Shown piece by piece: positions 9,313-41,471 of a stretch of 64,000 nucleotides of DNA. Location of the stretch: sequence record SRR31156797_5435, one strand, 5' to 3'. The notes below the pieces were generated by a model, which saw nothing but the letters and a program-made list of their open reading frames with translations, was not told the origin of the DNA and searched no databases. The position numbers were made by a program, and so were the translations under genes. How positions within the stretch are numbered: position 1 is the stretch's first letter; the number at the start of each line of letters is the position of its first letter.

Positions 9313-11391
9313 CTAACGAAGCTTAATGAGCATCGCACACCCCATTAAGGGAGAAGGAAAAGAAAGGTACCACTTATTTTTCTTCTTTTGAAGCTGGATT
9401 CCCTGGCATTCAAATCCACAGGTATGAAGAATCGTACGAAAATCCATAGGTAGTTCAACCATTGTTTGGTCAAAGTTATGAATGATGAGCAAGGCTTGAT
9501 CACCAAGTTCCCGTTGAACGATTTGATAACCAGTTGGTTTTCGATAGGAAAGAATCTGACTTCGGACGACAGTTGTCGTTCCATCCTTGATCAAAGGACG
9601 ACAGTGATCGTAAAAGACGAAACAATCATCAATCACTTTCCACTGCTCTTTGGAAAGCTCATTGATATCGCCGGATAGACATATTCTTCCTAAAAAGGTA
9701 CTGATCAAAGAATAAAACAACCGTTGGGGTGAATCTCGCTTTCTAATGACCGCCCAAATCAGGCTTTGTCTCGGTAAAAGATGGTCATGCAAATTTGCTG
9801 CTATGATTGGGACACTGATTGCCTCATGAGCATCAGAAAAGCTCGACAGATCCGTCAGTTGGATCATTGAATACTCTAAGCGATGACCGCCTGACGAACA
9901 GTTTTCGATGATTAAATCAGGCAATTGCTGCTGAATACGCTTAATAAATGCCTGTGTTGCCAACAGCTGTAAGCGACTTTCTTCGCCAAAAGATTCCTTC
10001 CCATCAAAACCGATCCCAAAATTTTCATTATAATCGATTTTCAAATATCCGATATCATAGTACGTTAAAAAATTGATTACTCTCTCTTGTAAATAGTCAA
10101 TGACCCAAGGATCTCGCATATTCCAAAAGCGTCGATTGCCGACGGTTAGAGGCTGTCCATCTTTATTCAATAGATGTTCAAAAAACGTACTGGCAACTGA
10201 CTGATCTCCGACTGTTTCAATTTCAAACCAAATGCCCGGAATCAGATCATGCTGCTTGATAGCAGCGATCACCGTCTCTAATCCATTGGGAAACTGTGAC
10301 GAACTTACTTGCCAATCACCATGACTACGTTCCCATCCATGTTGATTGGCATACCAGCCAGCATCAATGACATAATATTGAATCGCTTTCCCTTTTAAGG
10401 CAGCCAAATTTTTCAAAGTCATAGCTTCTGTTGGTCGTCCCCAAGATGTACAAAATTCGTTGAATTGGATTGCCAAATCCTCTTCCGTAGGATGCTGTTT
10501 TTGTGCCAAAGGTAACGTCAATATCTTTGTTAATCTTTGGGCGGCACTTGCTTCATTCCCGCAAGTGACGGTTAGGTATGCTTTTGGAGTGACAAAAACT
10601 TCACCCGGCATAACAGCTTTTAGCCAATGGCCATAATCTCGGTCTGCTAATCCACCCGACAAACAAAAATCCTCATCAAGACGATACGCATCAAACTGCC
10701 ATGATCCTGGTTGCGCAAGACTAACTGCCCATGTAATATCCTTTTGTTTGTCATAGATTGCCGCTTGCGGAAACCACCCTCTAACTGGCATCGAACCCAC
10801 TTGCCCAAATTTTTCTAATCCTACACCAGAAGGCTTCCATGAGGGCTCAAGCTGTAAGTCTTCAAGCAATTGTATGGTTTTACGCCCTTCAAAACTCCAC
10901 TTGCTTTGATAGCGGATCAAGCTCAAATTGCCTATTGGATTCTCGTCATAAAATGGACTAAGATTACTCAATGAGAAGCTTGCCAACATTTCAAGCATCT
11001 GGGGAATCTTCGTCCGATTTTCAAAGGTCACATAAGTTTCTATTACTGGAAACCCTATCTGCCAGCTTACATAATGGGTATAGTGATTTCCTCTATCATC
11101 AGCTAAGATGGTAGCAATTTCTTTTTTATTCGATTCCTGTTTATCGATTTGTTTCACTAATCGAAGGCTTTTGACTGTTGCACTATTCCGCATCGTACTC
11201 CCTGTGCTGAACCCTTTTGGGTAATCATCACCTATCAGTTTTGCTTGAATCAAGGAATCAAATTTGGTCTTTTTAGGTAGCTGTACTTCATGATGCAAAG
11301 AAGTTGGGCTAAGGAGCCATTCCACAGATTCGGCGGATTGATAGTAGTCGATCGTCATATCGCCAAACACGACCGTGCGTAACTTTTGCAT
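9313..11391 (-). CDS. Divergent GH36 (alpha-galactosidase clan) glycoside hydrolase
   Basis: 'YYVIDAGWY', 'PGIWFEIE', nucleophile motif 'YLKIDYN', 'IENCSSGGHR', 'SFSDAHE'; RBS GAAAGGAGG before ATG 11391. Confidence 0.8.
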   Translation of the reverse strand: MQKLRTVVFGDMTIDYYQSAESVEWLLSPTSLHHEVQLPKKTKFDSLIQAKLIGDDYPKGFSTGSTMRNSATVKSLRLVKQIDKQESNKKEIATILADDRGNHYTHYVSWQIGFPVIETYVTFENRTKIPQMLEMLASFSLSNLSPFYDENPIGNLSLIRYQSKWSFEGRKTIQLLEDLQLEPSWKPSGVGLEKFGQVGSMPVRGWFPQAAIYDKQKDITWAVSLAQPGSWQFDAYRLDEDFCLSGGLADRDYGHWLKAVMPGEVFVTPKAYLTVTCGNEASAAQRLTKILTLPLAQKQHPTEEDLAIQFNEFCTSWGRPTEAMTLKNLAALKGKAIQYYVIDAGWYANQHGWERSHGDWQVSSSQFPNGLETVIAAIKQHDLIPGIWFEIETVGDQSVASTFFEHLLNKDGQPLTVGNRRFWNMRDPWVIDYLQERVINFLTYYDIGYLKIDYNENFGIGFDGKESFGEESRLQLLATQAFIKRIQQQLPDLIIENCSSGGHRLEYSMIQLTDLSSFSDAHEAISVPIIAANLHDHLLPRQSLIWAVIRKRDSPQRLFYSLISTFLGRICLSGDINELSKEQWKVIDDCFVFYDHCRPLIKDGTTTVVRSQILSYRKPTGYQIVQRELGDQALLIIHNFDQTMVELPMDFRTILHTCGFECQGIQLQKKKNKWYLSFPSPLMGCAMLIKLR

Positions 11392-11436
11392 ATAACGGCC
11401 TCCTTTCATTTGTATACTGCCTACTAATCGATTCCT

Positions 11437-12648
11437 TTAAAAAAAGCTCTGCGTAATAAGTCCTTGCAATTCAATCACCTGGTTTTTCCCAATTTCAATC
11501 TTCGTCGGATTCAAAAATTCCACTTGTTGAAGTTCCAGTTGAACACTTTCGTCCACCCGAAGAAAACAAGCTTCCCCTGTATAATCAATCTTGAGATTCT
11601 TAAATTGTAATCGGACCTGTTCACCGTTCCCAAAAAAGTTTGATGTCTTGCGAATCCCAGAAATCGAGCAATTCTCTATCAATAACTGGCGCAAAGGTCG
11701 ATTATTTTGCATTAGTTTCTTTTCGCCATACTCGTAAACAAGAAACTTATCTGCGTCAGCGATTTTACTATCAATTAAGCGAATGTTTTGGGCATCTTTT
11801 TGAATCGTATCTGCCTCAATCGCATAGTATTTAAAAATGGCATGGGTATAATACGTATTTTCTGAAAGGTGAGGATAACGCCCTGGACCTTGAAACCTAC
11901 AGTTTTTAAAGGTAATCGTATCGCCACCGATCCTCATTGCGTTGCAAGCTGTATTTAAAAAACAATCTTCTACCATCAGCTGCTCAATGTCATACCCAGC
12001 AAAGCAGTCATCTCCACAAGCTAAATGACAATCACTGACATAAATGTTGGTGGAATGATGTAAATTGAATCCGTCATGCCCCGCTTCGATGGTTACATTG
12101 TTTATTTGGACATTTTGACAGCCATCGATCGTATGACTCCAGTTAGCACTATTTTTAAAACAATAACCAGCTAATTGAACCCCCGTGATTTGGGAAAGGA
12201 TGATCCCCATCGGTCCACGAAAGCCTTCTTCTCCATTTTCGTCGAAAGTATCTTGACCATCGATCAACGATCCAGGTTCCCCGATGATCTTCACATTTTC
12301 TTCTTTAAAAGCCGTGATCATGGCATAAAAATAATACTCAGGTAAATGCCAAATTTTTTTGTAGTATTCATCGTGCAAGTAGTTGATCGTACTTGGTACT
12401 TGAAAATCACAATAGTCCGCTAAGTTTTGGCTTCCCCTTAAGATTGCCCCAGATTTTAAACGTAAGGTGATATTTGAATAAAGACGTAAAGAGCCAATCA
12501 AATAGTCCCCCTCTGGTATGATTACTTCTCCTCCTCCAGCCTTTCGACAAGCATCGATGCATGATTGAATCGCCTTTGTTTGATTTTTTTCTGAATTTGT
12601 TGACACCCCGTAATCAGTGATAATAAACGTGTTCCTTTGGTCTTCCAT
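11437..12648 (-). CDS. Right-handed beta-helix GH28-like hydrolase, cytoplasmic
   Basis: 'TKAIQSCIDAC..GGGEVIIPEGDYLIGSLRLYSNITLRL', 'HDG', 'GDDC'; no signal peptide. Confidence 0.7.
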   Translation of the reverse strand: MEDQRNTFIITDYGVSTNSEKNQTKAIQSCIDACRKAGGGEVIIPEGDYLIGSLRLYSNITLRLKSGAILRGSQNLADYCDFQVPSTINYLHDEYYKKIWHLPEYYFYAMITAFKEENVKIIGEPGSLIDGQDTFDENGEEGFRGPMGIILSQITGVQLAGYCFKNSANWSHTIDGCQNVQINNVTIEAGHDGFNLHHSTNIYVSDCHLACGDDCFAGYDIEQLMVEDCFLNTACNAMRIGGDTITFKNCRFQGPGRYPHLSENTYYTHAIFKYYAIEADTIQKDAQNIRLIDSKIADADKFLVYEYGEKKLMQNNRPLRQLLIENCSISGIRKTSNFFGNGEQVRLQFKNLKIDYTGEACFLRVDESVQLELQQVEFLNPTKIEIGKNQVIELQGLITQSFF

Positions 12649-12814
12649 TTTTCATTTCCTCCTGTCCAATAATCATTTTTTTCCACCCAATCATTTCTCA
12701 AAAATGAATACAATTCAATTATAATGCGGATCTAATTGTTGAATAACTGAAAAAACGATATAATTGGTGTCAGAAAGTTACCTTTCTAATGTCTTTGCTA
12801 TGAAGGAGTATCGA

Positions 12815-13798
12815 ATGATCTATCAGATTCATTTAAATCTACCAATTTTCAATTTATGGAGTGGGTTGTTTTCGAACAATAATAATCAAACATGGCGCCA
12901 CAAAGAAACCCATCATTCCGAAAATTTTGAACTTATCTTGCCAATAAAAAACGATGTTTCCTTGACCATCAACGAAAAAGAGGTATTGATCAAAGAAAAC
13001 GAATGCTTTTTGATACCGCCATATGCGAAAATCAAAGCTGCTGCTACAATTGAACATGAAGTTCATTTTTACTGGCTACATTTCATTGCTTCTTACCAAA
13101 CGATTTCTTTAAAAGAGCCTATGTTACAAAAAGGCCTACAGGATCTAGCAACACTAACGATGCCAACAGAGCTAAATAATTTTATCTTTCTCCCACAACG
13201 TTTCCAGTTAAAGTATCCCGAACGAATCGTTGTTTTGCTTAATCAATTGCTTACAAACGGAAAAAGACAACAATACACACAACGGGGGAATGATTTTTCT
13301 TTAACCTTATTACTGATCGCTCTTTGTGATGATTACCTAAATCAATTGGCACATACCGCGAAAAATCATGTCAAAAAAACTGCATTGATTGCCGAGTGGA
13401 TTCGGGTCAACCTTACAAGTGAACTCCACTTATCTGATATTGCTAACCATTTTGGCTTGAATCCCAATTATCTTAGCAGGCTGTTCAAAAAGGAACAGGG
13501 AATTGGTATCAAAGAGTATATGGTAAACATCAAAATTGATTATGCAAAAACACTTTTAGCAACAACCAATTTATCGGTCAATGAAGTAGCTGATCAAGCT
13601 TTCTTTTCCGATGCAAAGCATTTTATGAGGACCTTTAAACAGAAAAATGGCTTAACCCCTTCTGACTATCGAGCAGAAAATGCGCAAACCAACCTAAATT
13701 CTAGTCAAATGAATCTTTCCGCCCCGTTACCACAGCAATTAGGCAATGAGGCACTAAAGAAGCTTATCTATCAGATTTTGAAAGAAAATCATCAATAA
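12815..13798 (+). CDS. AraC-family regulator with cupin sensor domain
   Basis: 'FYWLHF' cupin and C-terminal HTH 'NPNYLSRLFKKEQG...HFMRTFKQKNGLTPSDYR'; RBS GAAGGAG before ATG 12815; divergent from the GH28-like gene. Confidence 0.88.
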   Translation: MIYQIHLNLPIFNLWSGLFSNNNNQTWRHKETHHSENFELILPIKNDVSLTINEKEVLIKENECFLIPPYAKIKAAATIEHEVHFYWLHFIASYQTISLKEPMLQKGLQDLATLTMPTELNNFIFLPQRFQLKYPERIVVLLNQLLTNGKRQQYTQRGNDFSLTLLLIALCDDYLNQLAHTAKNHVKKTALIAEWIRVNLTSELHLSDIANHFGLNPNYLSRLFKKEQGIGIKEYMVNIKIDYAKTLLATTNLSVNEVADQAFFSDAKHFMRTFKQKNGLTPSDYRAENAQTNLNSSQMNLSAPLPQQLGNEALKKLIYQILKENHQ

Positions 13799-13864
13799 AA
13801 AAACATTTGTCCACCTTTGGTCCGTTTTAACGGAACTTGTTCAAGGTGGATACAAATGTTTTTT
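13797..13864. terminator. Bidirectional terminator
   Basis: AAAAACATTTGT-CCACCTT...AAGGTGG-(at)-ACAAATGTTTTT between convergent genes. Confidence 0.7.
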
Positions 13865-13874
13865 GTTCTTTTAT

Positions 13875-16850
13875 TTAGAAATCGTAATAAAAAAGCAATT
13901 TTTCTTCTTCTGCAAGTGCATTTGCATCAGTTGTTTGTTTTTGTCCTAAGACGAGTGTCAATTCAGGGTCTTGCTCTTTTGCAACTGCTGAAAGATCGAT
14001 TTTTATGATTCGATCCTCATAAAACGGAGCGGTCAGAAAAACAAATCCTCGTCCCGTTCCCATGACAGAAAACGTCTCGTTTTCAGTAATTTCTGTTTGA
14101 TTTGCTTTGATCAACTGATCACCCGCAGCATTTTTTTCATCTGTAATTGACAAGTAACAGTTTGCCGATTGGTTCCACAGTGCAACCTTCCCTCCATCCA
14201 GAGGTATTAGTTGGAAAAGATCAGCTTCAACATATTTTTTACTGATTTGTAGAAGACTTTCATCGTTAGTGGATAAATAAGAATTTCGTGTCTCATAAAC
14301 ATACTCGTCGCCTACTTTGGTTAAGGTTCTTTCATACCAAGGTTCTAAGCGTGTTCTTATTCGCAAAGTTAAGCTTGGCGCAGTCTCATAAATCGGGCCA
14401 TTGTAAAAAGTCAACGTTGAAAAATTCAAATGATCATTATGGATGTACCCTTGGGCGCGCATTGCTGCAGCAGCTTTGCTTGTCCAGGTCGTATCAACGG
14501 GACTATCGTGAAAGCGTGCTGCCACTTGTTCATATATTGGACGCAACTCTCCGCGATTGATGCGTTCACTATCTAGCCGGGTCCAATACCCTCGATTCGG
14601 GTTTTGGAAAACGTTCATGAGGGGGGTGAATGGTACCTCTTCAAATAAATTGTACTTGGCAGCCCATTCAAAGGCTTTCACTAAGCGATAATCATGTAAT
14701 GAATAAAGATCGATCCCTTGATTCGCAGCGGCTTCAGCCACAGATGCCAAATAGCTGATCCCTAACTGAGCATGTGCTTGGTCACGTCCACTTTCAACCG
14801 ATTGCCCCGTATCACTAACATAGACAGCAATCGATCCATTGATATGAATCGACTGATACAGATTGATCGCCCGCTCAACGATCGGTTGACTATCTGTAAA
14901 AAGACCAATCGCCATCATCGCATTCATAGCCGCCGTATCCCAGTTGCCGTTTGCTAACATCGGAACCCCTAGATCTTCAATTACTGGATACACAGTATTA
15001 ATTAGCATTTCTTGGGTTTGGCTGATATCTTCGGCAGTATATCCAGAATAACCACCTTGATAATGCGCAAGTATCTCTGCTGCTTCTATTAATTTCGAAC
15101 TACTGATCGCAGCGCCCAAAATGCGATCACGGCCATCAATCACCTTTAAGGTTTGCGACCAGCCATTAATGATTTCTGTAGCTTTTTGTGCATAGTCATC
15201 CTCTTCTGTGATGACCCATTGTAGGGCTAAAAAGTACGCAGCATTGCTGGCGCTTTCAAATTTGCCGATATTGCCATGACCTTCTGGAGCACCGCGTCCC
15301 ACTCCTTCTAAAGGCGTATCTATAAATGTCAATGCACTTTGATCATTGGAGACCCCTTGTTTAAGTTTTAAATAATCACTATACCAGGGTTCTTTTTTCT
15401 CAGCGATTCGTTGTTTCATCTGATCGAGATGTTCAGTGGTCAGTTGGATACCTGGATGGGTAAAGGATCTAGCTTCACTTACTCCTTTTACCGTATACGT
15501 TGCCTGCTGATAAGTAACTTCGATGCTTTCAGGCAAATCCGCTACTGGGAAAACAGCTTGAAAATAGTCGCTTGTTTTCTGAACTTTAGCTGAAACATTT
15601 AATTGATAATCATCTGGCAGATCATCACTTGTGATCGGCAACCATCGAACAAACACTTGATTTGCACGTATTTCATGGTCAACAATCAGCGCTCCTGAGA
15701 ACTCAGTTTCTTCAAAAACAAAGTACGCTGGTCGATTTTGTTGTCGACTAGCAGTTAAGCTTCCTTCCTGCCAATGTAAAAACCAATGAGTAACGGAGGG
15801 TTCGTCTCGTAAAGTATCTAGATCTGAAGCGATCGTATAAAGGTTTGACTCAGGATAATAATGAATGGATAACCGTTCATTATCATTGACGGATGCGGCG
15901 GTAAAGTTGAATAAAAAGCGTTCGTCTTTCTTTTGATAATAGTTTTTTTGTTCATCTGATTCTGAAAAATAGTTTTGAAAGGTCAGAAATTTACCAGTGG
16001 TGGTTGATTGAATTTGAGCTGTCGGTTTTAAAGAACCAGTTATTTTGTGGATCGGTTCTGCCACATACAAAGCAAACGTCTCTGCTTCTTGTTCATTCCC
16101 TACTGTGTAAATTGCCCCATTTTCCCTAACGGCAAAGTAACTCCCCGAATCAGTTTTGATTTTCATGTACTTCACTGGTAATGAAGCGTTGGTGAAATAA
16201 TTACCAATCTTATGTCCCTCTATGGTTTGGGGTACTTCATCAGTTGTCCGTATAATCTTGACATAGGGCGCTCTTGTCGAACGAATTGAAAAAAGTTCGG
16301 ATGCAGCAATCGATTCATCAAGACTTTTTTCTGTATAAAAGTGGATGGTCACTTCTTGACGATTCGCAGCTTTGGCTTCTTTGATCAAATCAGTGATATC
16401 TAACGTAACTACTGCCTCTCCATTTGGCAGCGTGACTTCATACGTTTTCGTATCCTTCAATACGCTAGGCTTGTTGTCGTAAGTGATCGTATCAGAATCC
16501 CACTGACTCCCGGCTTGTCCTCCACTAGTCAATTCATTGGAAGCCTCTTGGAAAAACAACTGGTTGCCGCCATGAGTAGTCACCATTTCCAATTGGATCT
16601 GTTTGATCGTTTCTATGTCTGTCAAATCACTGATAGCTAATTTCATATAAGCTTCTCTTAATTTTCCTACAATTAATTTTTCTCTGTTTCGTTCTTTCAT
16701 CACTTCTCCATGTTGACCATTAAAGTTTGAGACAAACGCATCATCAACAATGATGATTTCCTCTCTTTCGCTAGCAAATCCTACTTGAACACTTAAAATA
16801 CTAAGAAACAGACTACCAAGCAACAAAAACCAAACTTTTGCGATCCCCAT
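13875..16850 (-). CDS. Secreted multidomain alginate-lyase-superfamily ((alpha/alpha) toroid) protein
   Basis: Signal peptide ending 'VGFA'; N-terminal 'WDSDTITYDNKP' CBM-like module; core motifs 'FTHPG', 'NGNWD', 'ESGRDQAHAQLG'; beta-rich flanking domains. Confidence 0.7.
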   Translation of the reverse strand: MGIAKVWFLLLGSLFLSILSVQVGFASEREEIIIVDDAFVSNFNGQHGEVMKERNREKLIVGKLREAYMKLAISDLTDIETIKQIQLEMVTTHGGNQLFFQEASNELTSGGQAGSQWDSDTITYDNKPSVLKDTKTYEVTLPNGEAVVTLDITDLIKEAKAANRQEVTIHFYTEKSLDESIAASELFSIRSTRAPYVKIIRTTDEVPQTIEGHKIGNYFTNASLPVKYMKIKTDSGSYFAVRENGAIYTVGNEQEAETFALYVAEPIHKITGSLKPTAQIQSTTTGKFLTFQNYFSESDEQKNYYQKKDERFLFNFTAASVNDNERLSIHYYPESNLYTIASDLDTLRDEPSVTHWFLHWQEGSLTASRQQNRPAYFVFEETEFSGALIVDHEIRANQVFVRWLPITSDDLPDDYQLNVSAKVQKTSDYFQAVFPVADLPESIEVTYQQATYTVKGVSEARSFTHPGIQLTTEHLDQMKQRIAEKKEPWYSDYLKLKQGVSNDQSALTFIDTPLEGVGRGAPEGHGNIGKFESASNAAYFLALQWVITEEDDYAQKATEIINGWSQTLKVIDGRDRILGAAISSSKLIEAAEILAHYQGGYSGYTAEDISQTQEMLINTVYPVIEDLGVPMLANGNWDTAAMNAMMAIGLFTDSQPIVERAINLYQSIHINGSIAVYVSDTGQSVESGRDQAHAQLGISYLASVAEAAANQGIDLYSLHDYRLVKAFEWAAKYNLFEEVPFTPLMNVFQNPNRGYWTRLDSERINRGELRPIYEQVAARFHDSPVDTTWTSKAAAAMRAQGYIHNDHLNFSTLTFYNGPIYETAPSLTLRIRTRLEPWYERTLTKVGDEYVYETRNSYLSTNDESLLQISKKYVEADLFQLIPLDGGKVALWNQSANCYLSITDEKNAAGDQLIKANQTEITENETFSVMGTGRGFVFLTAPFYEDRIIKIDLSAVAKEQDPELTLVLGQKQTTDANALAEEEKLLFYYDF

Positions 16851-16936
16851 TTTCTGCCTCCTTTTTTTAAAAAAATAGTCAAAATAATCGACCAACGTTA
16901 TCAGCTATGTCTTGTCTCTTTTCACAAAAAAGCTAT

Positions 16937-21823: not shown

Positions 21824-21826
21824 CCG

Positions 21827-22435: not shown

Positions 22436-22507
22436 CTCTTCATCACCTCCATAATGAGGAGGATCACCAAACAAATAGACCTTTCTAAGAGTGATCCTCA
22501 AAATGAT

Positions 22508-24190: not shown

Positions 24191-24210
24191 TCTCTTTCCT
24201 CCTAATTTTT

Positions 24211-30581: not shown

Positions 30582-30582
30582 A

Positions 30583-32751: not shown

Positions 32752-32763
32752 TGGTCGCTCCTT

Positions 32764-33894: not shown

Positions 33895-35669
33895 TTCGCA
33901 AATCGCTCCTTTTTAATTGTTAAATCAACGTTTCCCCTAAGTTGAAACGCATTATTCGTTTCATGAAAAGTAACTTTTGGAAGCAGCTGCTTGGTTTTTT
34001 GACCAATGATATGCGCAACCAAAACAGTCCGCCCAGCTTCGATCACAGTCGTTAACGTCGGAACTGCATTTTTTTCACTAGAATAAATATTGGTGTTAGG
34101 TCCTTGAGGAATCACTCTGGCAGTTCGCACATCACCAAGATTACGAATGATCGATTCCCCTTGTTCGTTTTCAATAGCGCAAGAATTCTCCTGAATGATC
34201 GCCTGATTGTATTTGCGGTTCCAATTTGCCAAAGGAAAACCACCTTCAACCACTTCCAACGGTTGGTTTGTATGAATCTCATGGATGCGGATATGATTGG
34301 CAGCATCGATTGGAACCAAATACGTCGTGATCGAAACCTCTTGCCAGACATGCCAAAAACTAACCCCATAGGAATCATACATCTTTGTTTTTTCAATTTT
34401 CCCACGGGTCATATACTGCTGATGACCGGGTATTGAAACTGCTAACGTCGAATCGATTGCAAATTGCTCGATTCCTTGGATATCCCGCGTGACATTAAAG
34501 CCAAAATAGCTTGAATAAGCAAACTTGCTGTACTTTTCAAAATGATGGTACAAAAGTGGATTATTGCTACATTGCAAACTACTTAACGCGGTTGTCTGAT
34601 GTAAGTCGTGATTGATATGAAATCCAGCATGTGCTTGAACAGTTTTATCTCTTCGTTGGATGTTCATGGCGCTGATCGCCTGCCAAAACTCATGCTCTTC
34701 AGGGAGTGCGAGCACAACAAAGGTTTTAAATGCCCACATAGGTGACCCGGGGGCATTGTAATCTTCCGATAATAATTGCTGATTGTATCCATATCCGATC
34801 GAGAGGTTTTGTTCTTTAGGTAAAACGATAGGTCTTTTTTGCCAATCAGAAATATTTTTTTCCATTAGTCCTTTTATTTCGGACACAGACAAACTCGTTT
34901 CTCGATAGGCCTCTGTAAGCAAAAGCGCACTCCAAAACGAACAATGTGCAAAACGATAGGTCAAACTACGACCAAAAGGAATCGATCGACCCTCTGCGTC
35001 AAACCAGTGTTTAAACGATTCTGCAAAAATGATGGCTCGCTTTTTGTAGCGCGTTTTGATCTCTTCAGGAAAGCAATAATTGATCAATAACCCATAAAAG
35101 TGAAAAGCAAAAGCAACATAATAATCTCTTTGGCGATTGACCCCATCTGAGTACCATCCTTCACCTAAATAACATTCTTCAATTATTGCCAATGCTTCGT
35201 CTATTTTTTCTTGAGAATAAGGACTATTATTTTTCTTCAAACCAAGATTGACCAATAGCAAAAAGAAAAACCAATTGCCCTTGGGCAGATCAATCTCGTT
35301 GATTTGATATAACCATGCGAGGAGTTCTTTTTTACCTTTGTTCGAAAATAGTTGAAAGAAGGAGGATGGATAACGACCCAATATAAAACCTAATACACCT
35401 AATTCCACTGCAATCTGGCGATTTTCTGTTGAGAGTTTAGGTAAATTTCCTTCTTCGACACAATCAATAAAATCTTGGACAGTGTCGAATGTCTTGAGCT
35501 TCTGGGGTTGGTCACCATACGCTGGGAAAATCCCCCAAAAACTCCTCATTATTGCTTCAAACGATCGAATTTCTTTGGTATAGCTGCTACCGCTTTGTGC
35601 CAGATATGAGCGATCGTTGGGCAACATCCTTTCCATCCACATCTGCAAGTCTTTTTTAGAAATCATCAT
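33891..35669 (-). CDS. DUF2264 protein (GH154-like putative beta-glucuronidase)
   Basis: 'NWFFF', 'YLGEGWYSDG', 'DYY..FAFHFY', 'FGRSLTYRFA', 'EDYNAPGSPMWA', 'KYSKFAYSS'. Confidence 0.85.
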   Translation of the reverse strand: MMISKKDLQMWMERMLPNDRSYLAQSGSSYTKEIRSFEAIMRSFWGIFPAYGDQPQKLKTFDTVQDFIDCVEEGNLPKLSTENRQIAVELGVLGFILGRYPSSFFQLFSNKGKKELLAWLYQINEIDLPKGNWFFFLLLVNLGLKKNNSPYSQEKIDEALAIIEECYLGEGWYSDGVNRQRDYYVAFAFHFYGLLINYCFPEEIKTRYKKRAIIFAESFKHWFDAEGRSIPFGRSLTYRFAHCSFWSALLLTEAYRETSLSVSEIKGLMEKNISDWQKRPIVLPKEQNLSIGYGYNQQLLSEDYNAPGSPMWAFKTFVVLALPEEHEFWQAISAMNIQRRDKTVQAHAGFHINHDLHQTTALSSLQCSNNPLLYHHFEKYSKFAYSSYFGFNVTRDIQGIEQFAIDSTLAVSIPGHQQYMTRGKIEKTKMYDSYGVSFWHVWQEVSITTYLVPIDAANHIRIHEIHTNQPLEVVEGGFPLANWNRKYNQAIIQENSCAIENEQGESIIRNLGDVRTARVIPQGPNTNIYSSEKNAVPTLTTVIEAGRTVLVAHIIGQKTKQLLPKVTFHETNNAFQLRGNVDLTIKKERFAK

Positions 35670-36088
35670 TAAAAGAAATCCTCGAATGATTCTTTGATAG
35701 AAGGACGTAAATTTTGAACAGTCATCCCCTTGCGCACCTCTTCAATAATTGCTGCGATCTGCTGTTCTGATGTGCTTTGACTAACTATAATTTCCATAGC
35801 AAGAGGGAGATTCATACCGGTAACTAATACTACGTTCGGTTGCTGGGTCAAACGCATGGCCGAGTTACAAACACTGCCACCAGCAATATCACCTAGAATA
35901 ACAACTTGTGTTTCCTCATCGATCAGCGCTTCGATTTGATTGGTGATCAAATCTGGATGGCCTCCTGGCATCAGTCCAAAGGCATATAAATTTTCCTGAG
36001 TGCCGATAATCATTTCTAATGCTTTTTTCAAGCCATTGGCTAATTCGTTATGTGAGATCAAAAAATATTTTTTCTTCACTTTGTTCAC
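35669..36088 (-). CDS. Mannose-family PTS EIIA
   Basis: 'LISHNELANGL', 'GDIAGGSV', 'TGMNLPL'. Confidence 0.9.
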   Translation of the reverse strand: MNKVKKKYFLISHNELANGLKKALEMIIGTQENLYAFGLMPGGHPDLITNQIEALIDEETQVVILGDIAGGSVCNSAMRLTQQPNVVLVTGMNLPLAMEIIVSQSTSEQQIAAIIEEVRKGMTVQNLRPSIKESFEDFF

Positions 36089-36120
36089 TCCTTGTTCGAT
36101 TTTGCTATTCGCTTAGTTAT

Positions 36121-36138
36121 AAGCAATATGTATGCCAA
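36121..36138 (-). promoter_or_regulatory. Sigma54 (-24/-12) promoter for the EIIA-hydrolase operon
   Basis: TTGGCATACATATTGCTT (GG-N10-GC). Confidence 0.85.
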
Positions 36139-36240
36139 CTTTCTGTCGAAAGTGGCGAACTGTTTGTTTTTCCTTTTCGAAAATGATGCCTGCAACTGTC
36201 TCGAACGAGGACCAAACGTATTTATGTCGATCAAAAGCTA

Positions 36241-36275
36241 AGAGAACTTCTCTGAATCAACCAGAAAAGTTCTCT
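36241..36275 (-). terminator. Intrinsic terminator after EIID
   Basis: AGAGAACTTTTCTG-loop-CAGAGAAGTTCTCT on the minus strand. Confidence 0.6.
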
Positions 36276-36281
36276 ATCAAC

Positions 36282-37124
36282 TTATCCTGCAATACCTAGA
36301 ATCGTCAAAACGACTGATGCTAAAAACATCACGACTAATGCTAAAACAGGACGATTGTGTTTACGCAAGTAGGCAAAGCAACCCATAGTGATCGCTAACG
36401 GTAATAAACCTGGCATGATCGAGTCAAACACATTTTGCAGGTTGAAGGTCGTTCCTGACAATTCTGCAACAAAAGTTGTTCTAAACGTTACAAATTGAGC
36501 CGTCATTGCTCCCGTCATGATCAATCCCAACACTGCAGAACCTTTTGTAATTGCCGCAAAGGTACCTGATTTGAGTGCCTCTGAGATGAACTGACCGCCT
36601 GCTTTATAGCCTAACACCGTTGTAAACCAACGAATCAGCATGTTTGGTACATTTACGACTAATAAGAACAAGATCGGTCCTAAAATGTTTCCTTGTTCAC
36701 TGAGCCCTAATGCGATCCCGGTTGCAATGACTCGCAAGACAGAAAGATAAATCGCATCACCGATCCCAGCTAATGGACCCATCAAAGAAGTTTTTAATGC
36801 AGAGATCGAAGTAGCATCAAAAAACTCTCCTTTGTCTTTCATTGCCTTATTCTCTTCTTCCATCGATAACCCTAAAGCAGAGATAAAGCCATTCATTGCA
36901 GGTGCGGTGTTATAGAAATCCAAATTACGATTCATTGCTTCATAAAACTCATCGGTATCTTTTCCATATACTTTTTGTAAAAAAGGTGCCATTAACCACC
37001 CATAGGTAATTCCTTGTTGCTTTGTATAACTTGTACAAAACATTAAATATTGGTTTCTCCAGAACATTTTCGAAACGATTTTTCGTTCTTCTTTGTTTAA
37101 TTTAAGCATATCATTTTTAGTCAT
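36282..37124 (-). CDS. Mannose-family PTS EIID
   Basis: 'LKTSLMGPLAGIGD', 'FDSIMPGLLPL'; start position approximate. Confidence 0.9.
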   Translation of the reverse strand: MTKNDMLKLNKEERKIVSKMFWRNQYLMFCTSYTKQQGITYGWLMAPFLQKVYGKDTDEFYEAMNRNLDFYNTAPAMNGFISALGLSMEEENKAMKDKGEFFDATSISALKTSLMGPLAGIGDAIYLSVLRVIATGIALGLSEQGNILGPILFLLVVNVPNMLIRWFTTVLGYKAGGQFISEALKSGTFAAITKGSAVLGLIMTGAMTAQFVTFRTTFVAELSGTTFNLQNVFDSIMPGLLPLAITMGCFAYLRKHNRPVLALVVMFLASVVLTILGIAG

Positions 37125-37977
37125 TGAAAAAGTCATCTCCTTCGTCTTCACTTGCGGTCGATACAGTTGGACCACTGCTAACAGCTGGATTCTTCGCTGC
37201 TCTCAACTCTGCCATCACAACTAATGCTGCAACGATAAATCCGATAAATGCAATCTGTACTAAAGACAAGATACTACTTGACTGGGTTGTGATCACACCA
37301 TCTTTGACTTCGGTCGCACGTTGATAGAAAAAGAATGCACCTAAAGCAAATCCTAAAAAGTAATAGGGAGCCAAAGATTTTTGCCATAGCATTTTTAGTA
37401 GTAGAGCAAGACCAATTGCTGGTAGCATGGTTGAAGCGACGGTCATAGAACTTTGAACCCATTCAGGTAACCAGTCAACAAACGTTTTTACTGCATCGGC
37501 ACCTAAAAGGATAACGACAAAACCTAATAAGAAATAGCACAGTTCAAATCCCCAAAACTGAATATGCCATAATCGGCTGAATGCTCGATAATTGTGATCC
37601 TTAATATGTTTTTCAAATCGAGGAACTAATGAAGTGACAACCATCTTCATAACGGAATATAGCAAGGTACCTAACATGGAGATCGGTACAGCTAATGCGA
37701 TCGCTACATTTAAATCCGAACCAACGATCATGGCAAATGCAGCACCAAAAATGGATCCTAAAGTAATATCCGAAGGCATAACGCCTCCTAAACTAACATT
37801 TCCTAAGAAAATCAATTCCAGCTGAGCACCCATAATAATTCCTTCAGTCGGATGACCGAGAAGCATTCCTAATAAGGCAACGATAAAAATAGGTCTAGCT
37901 AGCTGAGTGGATCCCCACCAATCCAAAAATTTTGCTAAAGCGACGACAAATCCAACGATTAACGCATTGACTAACAT
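37117..37977 (-). CDS. Mannose-family PTS EIIC
   Basis: 'RPIF..LLGMLLG', 'GAQLELIFLG..SLGG', 'MLPAIGLALL'. Confidence 0.9.
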   Translation of the reverse strand: MLVNALIVGFVVALAKFLDWWGSTQLARPIFIVALLGMLLGHPTEGIIMGAQLELIFLGNVSLGGVMPSDITLGSIFGAAFAMIVGSDLNVAIALAVPISMLGTLLYSVMKMVVTSLVPRFEKHIKDHNYRAFSRLWHIQFWGFELCYFLLGFVVILLGADAVKTFVDWLPEWVQSSMTVASTMLPAIGLALLLKMLWQKSLAPYYFLGFALGAFFFYQRATEVKDGVITTQSSSILSLVQIAFIGFIVAALVVMAELRAAKNPAVSSGPTVSTASEDEGDDFFND

Positions 37978-37981
37978 AAGT

Positions 37982-38470
37982 TTAACCTCCTATTAATGAT
38001 TTCAAAGATTGTGGGGTATCATCTGGTAACGGTTGATAGCTAAAATCATACCCAGCATCAAAGATCTCTTTCAGTGTTTCTTTGTCTTCTTCTGATAAAT
38101 AGACAGTCTCTGTGATCTTTTCTTTGTCTGACAGACTACCGCCGATCCGTCCATAATTTGCCATATTCAACATTGGTTTCTCTTTAAGTTTTGGCACAAG
38201 ACCAGCGACATATTTCGGTTCATTTGTAACAACTAAGATTTTTAATTGTTCCGAGCGTGGATCATTCAAAATAGCAATCGCTTTTTCTAATGAGAGCACT
38301 GCAACTTTCACCCCTGAAGGCCCTGCCATTTTTAACGCACTTACTTGAATTTCGTTTTGTGCGATACCATCACTAACGACGACGATGCGACTAATCCCCA
38401 ACTCCTTCGACCATTTCACAGCTACTTGACCATGCACAAGACGGTCATCGATTCTTATCATTGAGATCAT
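37982..38470 (-). CDS. Mannose-family PTS EIIB
   Basis: 'RIDDRLVHGQV' phospho-His motif. Confidence 0.93.
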   Translation of the reverse strand: MISMIRIDDRLVHGQVAVKWSKELGISRIVVVSDGIAQNEIQVSALKMAGPSGVKVAVLSLEKAIAILNDPRSEQLKILVVTNEPKYVAGLVPKLKEKPMLNMANYGRIGGSLSDKEKITETVYLSEEDKETLKEIFDAGYDFSYQPLPDDTPQSLKSLIGG

Positions 38471-38508
38471 ATTGTTTCCTCCATTTTTTGTTTTGTCGTA
38501 TTACTAAT

Positions 38509-38526
38509 AAGCAATTTCTGTGCCAA
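38509..38526 (-). promoter_or_regulatory. Sigma54 (-24/-12) promoter for EIIBCD
   Basis: TTGGCACAGAAATTGCTT (GG-N10-GC). Confidence 0.9.
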
Positions 38527-38732
38527 GTTTCTGGCGATAACAAATATTTCGCTCATCTTCTCACAAGAATAAATAAAAACGCTATCATAAAAGGCTTTCT
38601 ATTTACTGATATAAAAAATTGTTCCTAGTTTAAAAAACAAAAAAAATCCATTCTTTCCAGCCAAAAAAGTGAAAACGAAACACTTGATCATCTGTCGGAA
38701 TGGATTGTTTTAGTGTCGAAGAAGAATTTTTA

Positions 38733-41471
38733 TCAGTCGAAAATAATCTCACAGAGATAATTTAGCTCGTATTCGCTGATTTTGATATTGTAAGCCACCT
38801 CTAAGCCCTCTAATGCTTTGGCGATAGTTGCTTTTTCTTCCATAAACTTGCTCGGATCTCCTTGATAAATTGGGACTTCTTGATTTCGGATCAGACGTTC
38901 TACTAAGCTTGCGATATGTACATATAATATCGCTTTTTTACTGTTGGATAATTGAAGCTGTAAGTACCGCTCCAAACTAACAAATCCTTGGTCAATATAG
39001 GAAATGACTTTATTGACATCTAAGATCGTCACCGCCGAAAGCAGCCGTTCGATCGATAGATTTCGTACAAGATTGTCATTGATCGCTTTACGAATGGCCG
39101 GATCTTTGACAAGAACAAAAATATCATCAATGATTTCTTGTCCTTTACCAGAAATCAAGTCTTCTAAAGCGATGTATGGGACACCATCAATTTCTGGATC
39201 AGCTGTTCCCACGATTCCTTGCACATCATATTGTTGAAATAGACCATTCTTCTTTCCATACTTTTTCAAGTAATGGTAATCTACCGCTTCGATCTCAAAC
39301 TTCGTTTCTTCAGGGATACTCGCTTTCAAAAATGATTGCAGCTGCTGTGCTGTTCCAAGACCAGTCTGACAAACAGTGATCAGCAGTGGCTGCTTTTGCT
39401 TTCTCGGATAAGTAACTTTGTATTCGATCGAGAGACCTTCCTTGATTTTATCGCCAATAATCTTAAGGTCGTAATTATTTTGCATCATTTCACCCACGAA
39501 TAATGCTTGCTGTGTCGTGACGTTATTGATAATCAATAATGGCCCATCTAACAATGGTTCTAACGTATCTGCTAAGAACATAAGTGAACCCATGTCCGCT
39601 AAAACGATCAATCCTTTTGAGCAATCATTGGCTTTTATATAATGCGTCATAAATTCTTTGACTTTATCCACGCTGACATTAAAAGGCATATCAAAGGCAT
39701 CAAAAATGTGTTCCTTCATAAAACGATTCACGACATCAGCGATACTGCTAGCAGTGGAAAATCCGTGGGCCAAAATGACGCCTCGGATCGCGTCTTGTTG
39801 ACTTTCTAAACCTAATCCTTTGAAGTAAAAAGCCAGTAAGATTTTCTCCATTCTCATCAAAGTAACATCAAGCTTTGTCTCTACTAATTCCAATAAAGAA
39901 TTGAGGAGCTTTGATTCCATCAATAAATGCACATTCATAAACGATTCGATCGAATCAATGGTCTTTTCGTCAATTTTGGGAATATTGAAAATAAAATTAT
40001 TCCGTTTATACAAATAACTTGTCAGGGCGATAATCGAGTTGCCGCGAATTTTAATAAAAAAACTAGCTTCTAAGAAATTTACTAGTTCCTTGACTGTATT
40101 ACGCAATAACTTCAAGGTTGGTTTTTCTTCTGCATCCTCGTAAACCAACATCTCCACGACTGTGCTGGCTTCTCTAGAAAGCTGTTTGACTAAATAATCT
40201 TCAGTGATTCCACCGCTTTCATATTGCTGAAACAATTTCTCAAAAACTTTAAAGATTGCATGAATGATCGTACTATCCGCTGTTTCTAGGTGCATGAAAT
40301 CACCGGCTTGGCTTTGGGGTGTGATGCGGATATCTTTGTTTTCTAGATTATCGATTTCTTTCAAAGAAAGAAATCGAGACAACAAACTATTTTCGATTGA
40401 CTCGGAATTGATCAAAACATAGGGGTGATTTTTTTGACGACTATACGCATTTGCACAGATAATCTTGATCAAGTTTTTCAATTCACCGACATTGTCGCGA
40501 TAATTTAAATACAACAACCGATTCAAGACCCATGACGTAATGACGATTTCTTTTGCAAATTTTTGACTTTCATGAATCAAAAACGTATAGATATATTCAG
40601 AAATTTCTTTTTTTGTCCGTTGTTGCAACGACGGGATCTGAACCGTGATGGGCACGCGCCGGATAAATGTTCTTAAAAAATTTTGTTGAATATCTTCCGT
40701 AGTTGCAAAAATCAAACGGACCTGCGCTTTTCTGGTTTTATTACTTTCACCTATTCTCGAAAAGGTTTGATTATCCATAAAGGTAAATAATTTCTCTTGG
40801 CTTTCTGCTGGTAAACGATGGCATTCATCTAAAAATAAGATTCCCCCGTCAGCAGCTTCCAAAAGGCCTACTTGTTCTTCGTTTGCTCCAGTGAATGCAC
40901 CTTTTTTATAGCCAAATAAGATACTACTCAATAACTCTTGATTATGATAGTACTGCGCACAATTTAATTCTAAAAAGGGGGCAGTTTCTCCAATGAGCTT
41001 TTTTTCAACGCAAAATTCATGCATCTTTTTTGCGAGTAAGCTCTTACCAACACCGGTTTCTCCGTGAAGCATGATTGGCAGTCCTGTGTCGGGATAAAAT
41101 GAGGCAGCTTTGATTTGATCGATCACTCGCTGCAAACTTGAACGATTTCCGATCAATGTCGACAAAACATCATTTCCCTGCTCTTGATTTTTTGTTTCAT
41201 TTAGAAGCTCTTCATAGGTATCGTAGACGGTCTGTTTTGGCGTAAAAAAGCGTTCAGAAAAAACTGTTTTGTCATAAAAGATTGCCGGTCTACTACGAAT
41301 CTTAAGGACCCGTTCTTCTTTTACTAATTCGTTCAAGTATTGGCTCGTGGTATTTCTTTGAATACCGACTTTTTCGGAAATCCCTTCTGTCGTTAAGGTC
41401 TCACTTGGTGCAATTTTTTCAACTTGATTCGTATGCTCCTTCAAAACAGTCAAAACTCTTTCTTTTGACAT
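38733..41471 (-). CDS. LevR/ManR-type sigma54 activator (HTH-AAA+-PRD-EIIA-EIIB-PRD)
   Basis: Walker A 'GETGVGKS', 'GAFTGA', 'LFLDECH', EIIA 'AHGFSTA', EIIB 'VCQTGLGTA'. Confidence 0.92.
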   Translation of the reverse strand: MSKERVLTVLKEHTNQVEKIAPSETLTTEGISEKVGIQRNTTSQYLNELVKEERVLKIRSRPAIFYDKTVFSERFFTPKQTVYDTYEELLNETKNQEQGNDVLSTLIGNRSSLQRVIDQIKAASFYPDTGLPIMLHGETGVGKSLLAKKMHEFCVEKKLIGETAPFLELNCAQYYHNQELLSSILFGYKKGAFTGANEEQVGLLEAADGGILFLDECHRLPAESQEKLFTFMDNQTFSRIGESNKTRKAQVRLIFATTEDIQQNFLRTFIRRVPITVQIPSLQQRTKKEISEYIYTFLIHESQKFAKEIVITSWVLNRLLYLNYRDNVGELKNLIKIICANAYSRQKNHPYVLINSESIENSLLSRFLSLKEIDNLENKDIRITPQSQAGDFMHLETADSTIIHAIFKVFEKLFQQYESGGITEDYLVKQLSREASTVVEMLVYEDAEEKPTLKLLRNTVKELVNFLEASFFIKIRGNSIIALTSYLYKRNNFIFNIPKIDEKTIDSIESFMNVHLLMESKLLNSLLELVETKLDVTLMRMEKILLAFYFKGLGLESQQDAIRGVILAHGFSTASSIADVVNRFMKEHIFDAFDMPFNVSVDKVKEFMTHYIKANDCSKGLIVLADMGSLMFLADTLEPLLDGPLLIINNVTTQQALFVGEMMQNNYDLKIIGDKIKEGLSIEYKVTYPRKQKQPLLITVCQTGLGTAQQLQSFLKASIPEETKFEIEAVDYHYLKKYGKKNGLFQQYDVQGIVGTADPEIDGVPYIALEDLISGKGQEIIDDIFVLVKDPAIRKAINDNLVRNLSIERLLSAVTILDVNKVISYIDQGFVSLERYLQLQLSNSKKAILYVHIASLVERLIRNQEVPIYQGDPSKFMEEKATIAKALEGLEVAYNIKISEYELNYLCEIIFD

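Follow-up and report, generated by a model that had tools for sequence, protein, structure and literature searches.

A strain-variable, probable dual-import polysaccharide utilization locus with two lyase-like protein families in an Enterococcus-like bacterium

Introduction

The yesL-yesM-yesN/lplABC-type system of Bacillus subtilis serves rhamnogalacturonan utilization. In the glycosaminoglycan (GAG) cluster of several Firmicutes (Streptococcus, Lacticaseibacillus, Enterococcus), as outlined in PMC6045597, a phosphotransferase system (PTS EIIABCD) is encoded with an unsaturated glucuronyl hydrolase (UGL), KduI/DhuI, KduD/DhuD, KdgK, KdgA and a polysaccharide lyase (PL) of family PL8 or PL12; the lyase makes unsaturated disaccharides, the mannose-type PTS imports them, UGL splits them, and the Kdu enzymes complete the pathway. 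Here we describe a gene island in a 64,000-nucleotide stretch of DNA, sequence record SRR31156797_5435 (the window), from an Enterococcus-like bacterium. Judged from its genes, the island is probably one accessory lyase- and dehydratase-driven catabolic locus for a branched polysaccharide containing beta-linked glucuronic acid (GlcA), most likely of plant origin.

Two further described systems bear on this locus. According to the account of Alvarez et al. (JBC 2025, PMC12269599), proteins assigned to glycoside hydrolase (GH) family GH154 are without glycosidase activity; they dehydrate terminal saturated beta-GlcA to its 4,5-unsaturated form, which GH88 then removes. That account places GH154 genes commonly beside GH88 or GH105, gives the content of the Bacteroides caccae polysaccharide utilization locus (PUL) PUL25 as PL35, GH88, the GH154 dehydratase BcGDH and GH109, and describes BT3677, a two-domain form with an extra C-terminal domain, as inactive on chondrosine. 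A bifidobacterial cluster for type-II arabinogalactan (gum arabic), presented in PMC13712309, includes an intracellular GH36, a GH154 and a PL. The original prediction for this DNA, made from the sequence alone, had failed to recognize its combination of genes as a described system, and our literature search likewise found no description of it; among the matches of that search, GH154 in enterococci appeared only in lists of carbohydrate-active enzymes.

Results

A single insert beside the Kdu genes

The island and its two flanks are as follows. Genomes, contigs, loci, proteins and sequencing runs are cited by working handles beginning with G, C, L, P and X.

9149..41595, no strand: accessory block of 32,447 bp, in place of a 212-bp intergenic spacer of G001, G003 and G008
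4102..9120, plus strand: left flank, core genome, with uxaB, uxaA, uxaC and a GDSL esterase gene; 99% identical in G001
41610..44941, minus strand: right flank, core genome, with kduD, kduI, kdgK and eda (Pfam, NCBIfam)

Window positions 1-9148 and 41596-60000 match one contig of G001 (C88) at 99% identity, where they lie 212 bp apart. The same flank adjacency occurs in G003 (C7) and G008 (C9) at 95-97% identity. BLAST of the junctions places the break exactly after 9148 and before 41596, and nothing in the window corresponds to the 212-bp spacer of G001. The flanks are adjacent also in the more distant G002, with a 345-bp gap, and are separated by about 3 kb in G004; all five genus genomes examined lack the 32,447 bp at this site. 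Because the flanks adjoin in the three closest genomes, the block is a single 32.4-kb accessory insert and one unit of inheritance, present in some strains only. The original prediction had outlined one contiguous locus at 9313-41471 between uxaBAC and kduDI-kdgK-eda, and those positions correspond to the first and last genes of the independently found indel at 9149-41595. The island sits exactly where the Kdu/Kdg pathway genes begin, and the right flank, followed to 45804, also includes an IclR regulator.

A mobile-element origin was rejected, as BLAST found no repeats at the junctions and Pfam matched no integrase or transposase among the 21 open reading frames (ORFs) of the block. GC content (0.37-0.43 in the island, 0.41-0.46 in the flanks) is too close to argue for foreign origin. 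Since KduI-KduD-LevR(-PTS) is the usual order in other genera, gain through recombination at the kdu genes and loss in relatives are both possible. The stretch occurs in 18 public runs from 13 studies, which include isolates as well as metagenomes of plants, bat gut, fresh water and mouse; the habitats of runs with a low share of the stretch were not used as evidence.

Gene content

By an ORF list of the window and a Pfam scan over 46 of its ORFs, the interval 9313-41489 contains 21 ORFs, only one of them on the plus strand. A Pfam match at E<=1e-5 was obtained for 19 of the 21, the exceptions being the 1114-aa and 269-aa ORFs. The genes fall into three parts. Part A comprises a LevR-type activator, two sigma54 promoters, a mannose-family PTS, GH154 (DUF2264), GH88, GH36, a 269-aa protein and GH43. 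Part B holds a two-component system, an ATP-binding cassette (ABC) importer, a DUF624 protein, a cytoplasmic PL17-like protein and a secreted PL5/PL38-like protein, and part C an AraC regulator, a GH28-like enzyme and a divergent GH36-like enzyme. Every item in the inventory of the original prediction is present by ORF list, Pfam and PDB matches, including its CBM-like protein (the 269-aa ORF), its two importers (ABC and mannose-family PTS) and three regulators (histidine kinase with response regulator, LevR-like sigma54 activator, AraC).

Two families of lyase-like proteins

Two genes of part B encode large proteins with lyase-type folds.

13875..16850, minus strand: secreted multidomain lyase-like protein, 991 aa from the ATG at 16850 (Pfam CBM96 and Alginate_lyase, signal peptide)
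16937..20415, minus strand: PL17-like (Hep II/III-like) cytoplasmic protein of 1159 aa in its intact form; a 1-base frameshift splits the gene in this assembly

The start of the secreted protein at 16850 is supported by P0121, which is 99% identical and also 991 aa long. Its model (pLDDT 88) shows a signal peptide, a CBM96-like domain, beta-rich modules, an (alpha/alpha)6 barrel (aa 461-820) and a C-terminal beta-trefoil, in that order; no cell anchor motif was seen by eye. The Pfam Alginate_lyase match, at 1.7e-14, is above cut-off. In VIA-align comparisons the barrel matches the PL5 lyase A1-III (4f10) with Z 26.6, root-mean-square deviation 3.5 and 313 aligned residues. A chondroitinase, 9o3q, ties with the best barrel matches at Z 26.2, and PL17-N, PL35 and PL38 are about equal at Z 24-26 (PL38 8bdq, Z 24.8), as is PL39, with 12-14% identity. 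The best structural match for the CBM96-like domain is 8wab, a chondroitin-sulfate-binding carbohydrate-binding module (CBM), at Z 19.5. A single-sequence search of PDB returned no match at E<=1, and a profile of 38 family sequences found nothing significant among PDB sequences, its best PL5 match having E 0.3. At least 77 database relatives score E<=0.001.

Two other leads for the secreted protein were set aside. The top Foldseek hit was 5no8 of PL27, the L-Rha-alpha-1,4-GlcA lyase family of BACCELL_00875 and BT0263 (E 2.5e-7), but its TM score was only 0.17-0.23 and the structure was absent among the 50 VIA-align matches listed. Matches to botulinum and tetanus toxin binding domains reflect lectin-like jelly-roll and beta-trefoil neighbors of carbohydrate-binding modules and have no bearing on toxicity.

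The cytoplasmic protein belongs to a family of proteins of about 1130-1200 aa, labelled "COG1470 family" or "heparinase II/III family", with at least 217 members at E<=0.001 among 7999 candidates examined. In its model (pLDDT 87, pTM 0.88), an (alpha/alpha)6 toroid and an anti-parallel beta-sheet domain are flanked by beta-sandwiches at both termini. The top Foldseek match is the exolytic PL17 enzyme Alg17c (E 3.6e-17, target TM score 0.61-0.65), with 4ok2, 4ojz and 7bjt at 4e-17 to 2e-16, followed in rank by exoHep, PL39, PL15, PL40, PL21 and PL12; PL8, PL12 and PL21 are only weaker fold neighbors. A 40-sequence profile detects PL17 among PDB sequences at 1.7e-6 over about 125 residues, while a single-sequence search of PDB gave no match at E<=1 and the Pfam matches stay below threshold (Hepar_II_III_C 0.095, Alginate_lyase 0.11). 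Residues H360, N411, Y464, H652, Y655 and H695 are invariant in the family alignment, and identity to solved lyases is about 11%. The original prediction had called this a cytoplasmic HepII/III-like lyase; the location and the lyase fold hold up, but the protein is closer to PL17 than to heparinase II/III, and its gene is frameshifted here. On their models, both proteins appear to be lyase-fold proteins outside any solved family.

In this assembly the frame that opens with the ATG at 20415 ends at 20140; the long frame is open again from 20281. A homopolymer at 20153-20158 has six A on the plus strand where the intact gene needs seven, as judged from P0001, which is 99% identical and reads through all 1159 aa. 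Contigs of four public runs were compared over 13800-28200. Those of X2, X5 and X15 have one extra A behind 20152; that of X1, a run from which this DNA may come, is without it at depth 56.5. The frameshift is thus confined to this strain or assembly, since X2, X5, X15 and P0001 carry the intact form. Either a pseudogene allele peculiar to the strain or a homopolymer error would explain the short A6 form.

A predicted glucuronate dehydratase paired with GH88

Part A contains two genes whose products may act in succession on terminal GlcA.

32764..33894, minus strand: GH88 unsaturated glucuronyl hydrolase (Bacillus UGL 1vd5, E 1.2e-65)
33891..35669, minus strand: two-domain DUF2264/GH154 protein, predicted beta-D-glucuronate dehydratase (Pfam, PDB sequence matches)

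With a match to the streptococcal UGLs 2zzr and 3anj at 4e-47 besides that to the Bacillus enzyme, the GH88 protein is by homology a true UGL. Its neighbor matches Pfam DUF2264 at 4e-84 over profile positions 28-348 of 353, and DUF2264_C, the extra C-terminal domain that it has in common with BT3677, at 2e-27. In PDB it matches 8oi4 (7e-17), 9o4u, entitled beta-D-glucuronic acid dehydratase (1.9e-12), and 9nwf (1.3e-11); two of these three solved relatives were deposited as glucuronate dehydratases. The two genes overlap by 4 nt, and the pairing recurs in G048, G060, G094, G146 and G013. As a beta-glucuronate dehydratase that primes GlcA for GH88, GH154 would explain the presence of DUF2264 in the island.

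Occurrence of the parts in other genomes

Island proteins were mapped by tblastn onto loci from other genomes, with family searches covering 134 Enterococcaceae-level genomes and class searches 401. The pairs L001/G045 and L002/G094 gave identical match maps, and each pair is counted once.

The order LevR, EIIBCD, EIIA, DUF2264, GH88, GH36, 269-aa protein, GH43 of part A is kept in G048, G060, G094, G146 and G013, at 50-90% identity. G116 has part A without DUF2264, and in G007 part A is rearranged. The genes kduI and kduD lie beside part A in G048, G060, G013 and G007, directly upstream in the first three. The PL17-like protein is found in two of the 134 genomes, and the secreted lyase-like protein in three at E<=1e-20, with three of its four places adjoining part A or a PL17-like gene. 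Both full-length homologs of the secreted protein (G146, G013) adjoin part A; a short one follows the PL17-like gene in G045. The GH28-like gene occurs in five genomes at six places; four of these lie no more than about 12 kb from part A or B, one lies elsewhere and one is of undefined context. The GH36-like gene occurs in six genomes, next to a part-A cassette in every one. The copy in G048 (C22:29285-30819) is decayed, with five internal stop codons in its two matching pieces, three in one and two in the other.

At the class level the PL17-like gene was found in 3 of 401 genomes, the Paenibacillaceae-like G252, G483 and G456. All three have, within 10 kb of it, a GH88 (50% identical to that of the island), a GH43 (44-45%), a GH28 enzyme and ABC permeases. 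The regulators nearby are histidine-kinase and response-regulator genes in G252 and G483 and an AraC-type gene in G456; two of the three genomes have a second Hepar_II_III protein, and one has a homolog of the 269-aa protein. This placing of part-A and part-B enzymes side by side in Paenibacillaceae-like genomes is the strongest argument for one substrate.

A single contig of G094 carries both part A and part B, at a distance of about 27 kb; in it a homolog of the ABC solute-binding protein comes right after GH43, and a GH28-like gene follows the lyase-like genes. The part-B homolog of this genome has PTS EIIC/EIID and esterase genes between its ABC permeases and its histidine kinase (L002 4241-5851); with EIIC/EIID inside the ABC operon, a single run of genes combines components of both import systems.

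Three related loci encode giant proteins of 1188+ to 1828 aa: L037:1085-6571 (G094), L041:5272-9735 (G252) and L036:16437-20000 (G146). In each, a weak N-terminal Alginate_lyase region is combined with F5/8C, FIVAR and Big_2 domains, and a GH28 of about 480 aa accompanies every one of the three. Such proteins may form a third uncharacterized lyase-like family of the same pathway. The idea that they are hidden GH43_24 galactanases was rejected, as their N-termini match Alginate_lyase at 1.6e-4 to 4.9e-3 and no GH43 match appears at Pfam E<=1.

Other cytoplasmic proteins

The remaining enzymes of parts A and C, and the 269-aa protein, are listed here.

9313..11409, minus strand: divergent GH36-like enzyme, 698 aa, cytoplasmic (Pfam Melibiase 7e-28; PDB GH36 1.9e-21)
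11437..12648, minus strand: GH28-like beta-helix protein, 403 aa, without signal peptide (Pfam GH28 5e-9, Pect-lyase_RHGA_epim 2e-11)
28192..29796, minus strand: GH43 with GH43_C2, XynB3-like beta-xylosidase (XynB3 2exh, E 1.4e-163)
29772..30581, minus strand: 269-aa cytoplasmic protein with a weak F5/8C or DUF7402-like domain; the gene overlaps GH43 by 25 nt
30583..32751, minus strand: canonical GH36 alpha-galactosidase, 722 aa, AgaA/AgaB-like (AgaB 4fnq, E 5.6e-212)

For the GH36-like enzyme the best NCBIfam model is a beta-L-arabinopyranosidase, at 1.5e-39 and far below its cut-off; by eye the protein retains K-x-D-x-N and C-x-x-G-G-x-R, which we take to be known motifs of such enzymes. The GH28-like protein is remote, reaching NCBIfam rhamnogalacturonidase and galacturonidase models at 1e-24, below cut-off; it retains G-D-D, presumably a motif of its family. 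The GH43 protein is possibly also an alpha-L-arabinofuranosidase.

The 269-aa protein matches F5/8C at E 4e-5, under the Pfam cut-off, and clusters with "carbohydrate-binding / DUF7402" groups in the ESM Atlas. Of the 134 family genomes, 59 have homologs, in most cases no more than 5 kb from a DUF2264 gene; in a first sample of 41 relatives, 12 of 14 DUF2264-positive genomes had one at that distance. By this association the protein appears to be an uncharacterized partner of the dehydratase/GH88 pathway.

Import, regulation and transcription units

The genes and sites for import and regulation are the following.

12764..13798, plus strand: AraC-family regulator, divergent from the GH28-like/GH36-like pair (Pfam)
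20390..21823, minus strand: response regulator with AraC output domain, YesN-type (Pfam)
21827..22501, minus strand: DUF624 membrane protein, YesL-type (Pfam)
22508..24190, minus strand: 560-aa lipoprotein, solute-binding protein of the ABC importer (Pfam; N-terminal ...GTAAC lipobox)
24211..26094, minus strand: two ABC permeases (Pfam)
26223..27905, minus strand: sensor histidine kinase, His_kinase/HAMP, YesM-type (Pfam)
35669..36088, minus strand: PTS EIIA, mannose family (Pfam, NCBIfam)
36122..36137, minus strand: second sigma54 -24/-12-like site, TGGCAT-N5-TTGCT, 34 nt upstream of EIIA
36282..38470, minus strand: PTS EIIB, EIIC and EIID, mannose/GalNAc family (Pfam, NCBIfam)
38510..38525, minus strand: sigma54 -24/-12 promoter, TGGCAC-N5-TTGCT, near-perfect, 40 nt upstream of the EIIB start codon
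38733..41489, minus strand: LevR-type sigma54-dependent activator, AAA+ sigma54 domain and PRD (Pfam)

The ABC permeases are 80% identical to those of L001/G045 and G094, and no ABC ATPase gene is found in the block. The activator matches the NCBIfam DagR model over its full length at 1.4e-146, below the cut-off of the model. The AraC regulator has a homolog, 64% identical, in the same divergent position in G060. Among the island proteins there is only one with a signal peptide, besides one lipoprotein, a distribution that fits a scheme of cutting outside and finishing inside the cell.

Gene spacing, with gaps of 286, 262, 193 and 115 bp between units, together with motif scans suggests four or five transcription units. 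The activator gene (38733-41489) is a unit alone. The sigma54 site at 38510-38525 would drive EIIB-EIIC-EIID, after which there is a 15-pair hairpin at 36241-36275. Downstream of the second site come EIIA, DUF2264, GH88, GH36, the 269-aa ORF and GH43, overlapping or nearly touching. Past the 286-bp gap follow the histidine kinase, two permeases, solute-binding protein, DUF624, response regulator, PL17-like and secreted lyase-like genes. The AraC gene and the GH28-like/GH36-like pair face each other across 115 bp.

Because a loose sigma54 pattern occurs at chance level across the window (20 found, 19.96 expected), the sites were weighed by position and conservation only. Exact TGGCAC-N5-TTGCW sites precede EIIB in G146, G060 and G094 and EIIA in G060, G048 and G116, and rpoN is present in all three closest genomes. 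Exact sites are seen also upstream of kduI in G048 (L026 5904-5919) and G013 (L017 1065-1080) and upstream of the GH36-like gene in G094 (L030 5703-5718), so that the LevR regulon may include the Kdu genes in the former two and the divergent GH36 in the last. When 13800-28200 is divided into 30 bins, contigs of a metatranscriptome run, X15, match 27 of them with 90-99% identity; these contigs were rejected as expression evidence, because contigs from an RNA library are no proof of transcription and the conditions are not stated.

Other genes of the window

Further sugar loci lie at 46715-59897: an FGGY kinase, GH4 with PTS EIICB, an ABC system that includes 547-aa and 195-aa ORFs without Pfam match, a ROK kinase, a LacI regulator and a GH3. 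A 777-aa surface protein at 60186-62519 combines a legume-lectin-type domain with a WxL cell-wall-binding domain. At 675-2888, upstream of the LacI-uxaBAC genes, a 737-aa AraC-family protein with a hydrophobic N-terminus may be a membrane-bound sugar sensor-regulator.

Discussion

A proposed route

The island is a real and well-bounded feature, which we read as a Gram-positive polysaccharide utilization locus. In the route that we propose for it, every activity is assigned from homology and context. The secreted CBM96-like/(alpha/alpha)6-barrel protein would cut an acidic polymer outside the cell by beta-elimination. Larger fragments would enter by the ABC importer, induced through the YesM/YesN-type two-component system, and small ones by the mannose-family PTS, whose two sigma54 promoters would be under the LevR-type activator. 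In the cytoplasm GH88 would remove unsaturated uronates from non-reducing ends. Where trimming exposes saturated terminal GlcA, GH154 would dehydrate it and GH88 remove the product; alternatively, the PL17-like protein may release it as an exo-lyase, although its gene is broken in this strain. The two GH36s, GH43 and the GH28-like enzyme would strip alpha-galactose or beta-L-arabinopyranose, xylose or arabinofuranose, and a further uronide. The keto-uronate released would pass to the adjacent KduI-KduD-KdgK-Eda pathway.

The most likely substrates for such a route are an exudate gum or an acidic glycan associated with pectin or arabinogalactan-protein (AGP). As a working guess, held more tentatively than the reading of the locus as a whole, we suggest an acidic plant gum or mucilage glycan with a uronate backbone or abundant GlcA-capped side chains. 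Carriers of the two lyase-like families include Paenibacillus with S-layer homology (SLH) anchors, Clostridium puniceum, Lachnospiraceae, Agrilactobacillus and Enterococcus camelliae. The families are found also in Bifidobacterium biavatii, B. amazonense and B. callimiconis, species that presumably come from gum-feeding primates. Plant origin is favored by these carrier taxa, by GH28 enzymes in related loci and by a GH78 rhamnosidase in G060. B. biavatii is described as consuming gum-arabic oligosaccharides in a 2026 account of bifidobacteria from gummivorous primates (PMC13712309). The plant gum, AGP or bacterial exopolysaccharide (EPS) of the original prediction would be candidate substrates; the island has no beta-galactanase or beta-galactosidase of the kind present in a type-II arabinogalactan locus.

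Alternative explanations

Two alternatives concern the substrate. The founding CBM96 reportedly binds alginate (PMC9971899), the Pfam names Alginate_lyase and CBM96 point the same way, and alginate lyases of PL5, PL17, PL38 and PL39 come nearest in fold, all of which would suit a microbial or algal polyuronide: alginate, beta-1,4-glucuronan, a bacterial capsule or EPS, or a fungal glucurono-xylo-glycan. Xylose, GlcA and alpha-galactose do occur together in some fungal and bacterial heteroglycans. Alginate breakdown, however, requires neither GH88 nor a glucuronate dehydratase. The lyase-like proteins have at most 11-14% identity to any alginate lyase, and the island lacks a specific gene of the 4-deoxy-L-erythro-5-hexoseulose uronate (DEH) reductase type. 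Alginate is unlikely, given that the ends on which GH88 and GH154 act are of GlcA type and that the hosts live on land and in the gut, and we regard the polyuronide group as a whole as improbable. An enlarged host-GAG cluster of the streptococcal, lactobacillal or enterococcal type, for heparosan, heparin, hyaluronan or chondroitin, has the fold matches 8wab and 9o3q of the secreted protein on its side, together with the bat-gut and mouse runs among those that carry the stretch. PTS EIIABCD with GH88 and kduI/kduD/kdgK/eda is also the architecture laid out in PMC6045597, and the only GH154 dehydratase given a defined pathway in the account of PMC12269599 acts in a chondroitin PUL. Against this, Pfam and NCBIfam found no hexosaminidase, N-acetylglucosamine-6-phosphate deacetylase or deaminase, or sulfatase among the 21 island ORFs, and GAG repeats leave nothing for GH36, a GH43 beta-xylosidase or a GH28-like enzyme to do. 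Sequence searches of PDB matched neither lyase-like protein to PL8, PL12 or PL21, relatives are mostly in soil and plant bacteria, and the dehydratase has the two-domain form of BT3677, which in PMC12269599 did not act on chondrosine. With amino-sugar and sulfatase genes missing and several enzymes without a GAG role, a plain GAG substrate is unlikely, and we give the enlarged-cluster explanation very little weight. The original prediction had likewise seen more than a simple GAG locus, citing DUF2264, the alpha-galactosidases and the pentosidase; the misfit persists, except that DUF2264 is now accounted for as GH154 feeding GH88.

Several observations weigh against a single locus with a single substrate. 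Part B stands without A or C within 10 kb in L001/G045, part A stands with only kdu genes in G048, and the locus is accordingly modular. The closest relatives of parts A, B and C lie in different genomes, so the island may be a recent mosaic. The 722-aa GH36 and the XynB3-like GH43 are of common housekeeping types, for raffinose and xylo-oligosaccharides. The lyase chemistry of both large proteins is inferred across about 11-14% identity to solved lyases, and one of their genes carries a frameshift here. Nor does the island encode a beta-galactanase, beta-galactosidase, rhamnosidase or mannosidase, and without these four enzyme types no textbook gum or AGP structure is fully covered. The extreme form of this objection is that a glucuronide PTS operon, an ABC/two-component operon and an AraC glycosidase pair have come to lie side by side by chance in a recombination hot spot, with no common substrate; their separate regulators and at least four transcription units would agree with that. 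The original prediction had counted independent occurrence of the sub-operons as evidence against itself, and with parts A and B alone in some genomes half of that objection is borne out. The synteny search nevertheless also links the parts by recurrent neighborhood in other genera and in another family. The same families recombine in varied orders in seven genomes (G060, G094, G146, G116, G013, G007, G048), all three class genomes with a PL17-like gene have GH88 and GH43 genes less than 10 kb from it, and the entire block is a single indel. A chance assembly seems unlikely to us, and one locus for a branched, GlcA-containing plant polysaccharide is preferred.

Significance

A bolder proposal, which is possible but on balance doubtful, is that the secreted 991-aa and cytoplasmic 1159-aa proteins are founding members of two uncharacterized PL families. 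Together with GH154 and GH88 they would constitute an undescribed Gram-positive pathway for a glucuronate-rich plant exudate or mucilage, with parallel sigma54-PTS and ABC import and the 269-aa protein as a further pathway enzyme. In any case the island is a compact, strain-variable test bed for the substrates of two widespread, unstudied lyase-like families, with relatives in Paenibacillus, Lachnospiraceae, bifidobacteria and lactic acid bacteria. It raises the questions of whether the GH154/GH88 couple operates in Gram-positive, PTS-fed pathways and why one locus keeps two import routes. Natural strains that carry the island, lack it or have a disrupted PL17-like gene coexist, so that comparing their growth could soon reveal the glycan. 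Should this be a plant gum or mucilage, the island would help explain niche adaptation of plant- and gut-associated enterococci.

Comparison with known systems

With the yesLMN/lplABC-type system of B. subtilis the island shares a YesM/YesN-type histidine kinase and AraC-type response regulator, DUF624, a large lipoprotein solute-binding protein, two permeases, the absence of an ATPase gene, and uronate-active enzymes nearby. It differs in having no PL11 or GH105 and in a chemistry of GlcA (GH88/GH154) rather than galacturonic acid-rhamnose. The 1159-aa protein resembles exolytic PL17 (Alg17c) and PL15 (Atu3025, exoHep) lyases in its (alpha/alpha) toroid and beta-sheet fold and in its cytoplasmic location, but it is only about 11% identical and has two extra N-terminal beta-sandwich domains as well as extra C-terminal ones.

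Like the Firmicute GAG cluster as outlined in PMC6045597, the island has a mannose-family PTS with separate EIIA, a cytoplasmic GH88 and adjacent kdu/kdg genes, with the (here predicted) lyase outside and UGL inside. In contrast to it, the island has sigma54/LevR control, GH154, two GH36s, GH43, a GH28-like enzyme, the 269-aa protein and a second (ABC) importer with its two-component system; its lyase-like proteins appear to be PL5/PL38-like and PL17-like instead of PL8 or PL12, and amino-sugar and sulfatase genes are missing. From the bifidobacterial gum cluster, as far as it is set out in PMC13712309, the island repeats an intracellular GH36 (alpha-galactose or beta-L-arabinopyranose), GH154, a lyase (putative in the island), and ABC import without an ATPase gene, whereas the GH43_24 endo/exo-beta-1,3-galactanase, GH42, GH30_9, GH78 and PL27 of that cluster are all lacking. 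By Pfam and NCBIfam, none of the type-II arabinogalactan families GH43_24, GH30, GH42, GH2 and GH35 is present in the island, its GH43 being XynB3-like. With B. caccae PUL25, as described in PMC12269599, it has in common a lyase (putative in the island), GH154 and GH88, which together would remove saturated and unsaturated terminal GlcA without a beta-glucuronidase. PUL25 is Gram-negative, relies on SusC/D, is specific for chondroitin and has a single-domain dehydratase; the island is Gram-positive, combines PTS with ABC import, encodes a two-domain, BT3677-like dehydratase and carries other glycosidases. The island joins elements of the GAG cluster, PUL25 and the YesLMN/LplABC system, and adds to them two uncharacterized lyase-like families, sigma54 control and the 269-aa protein.

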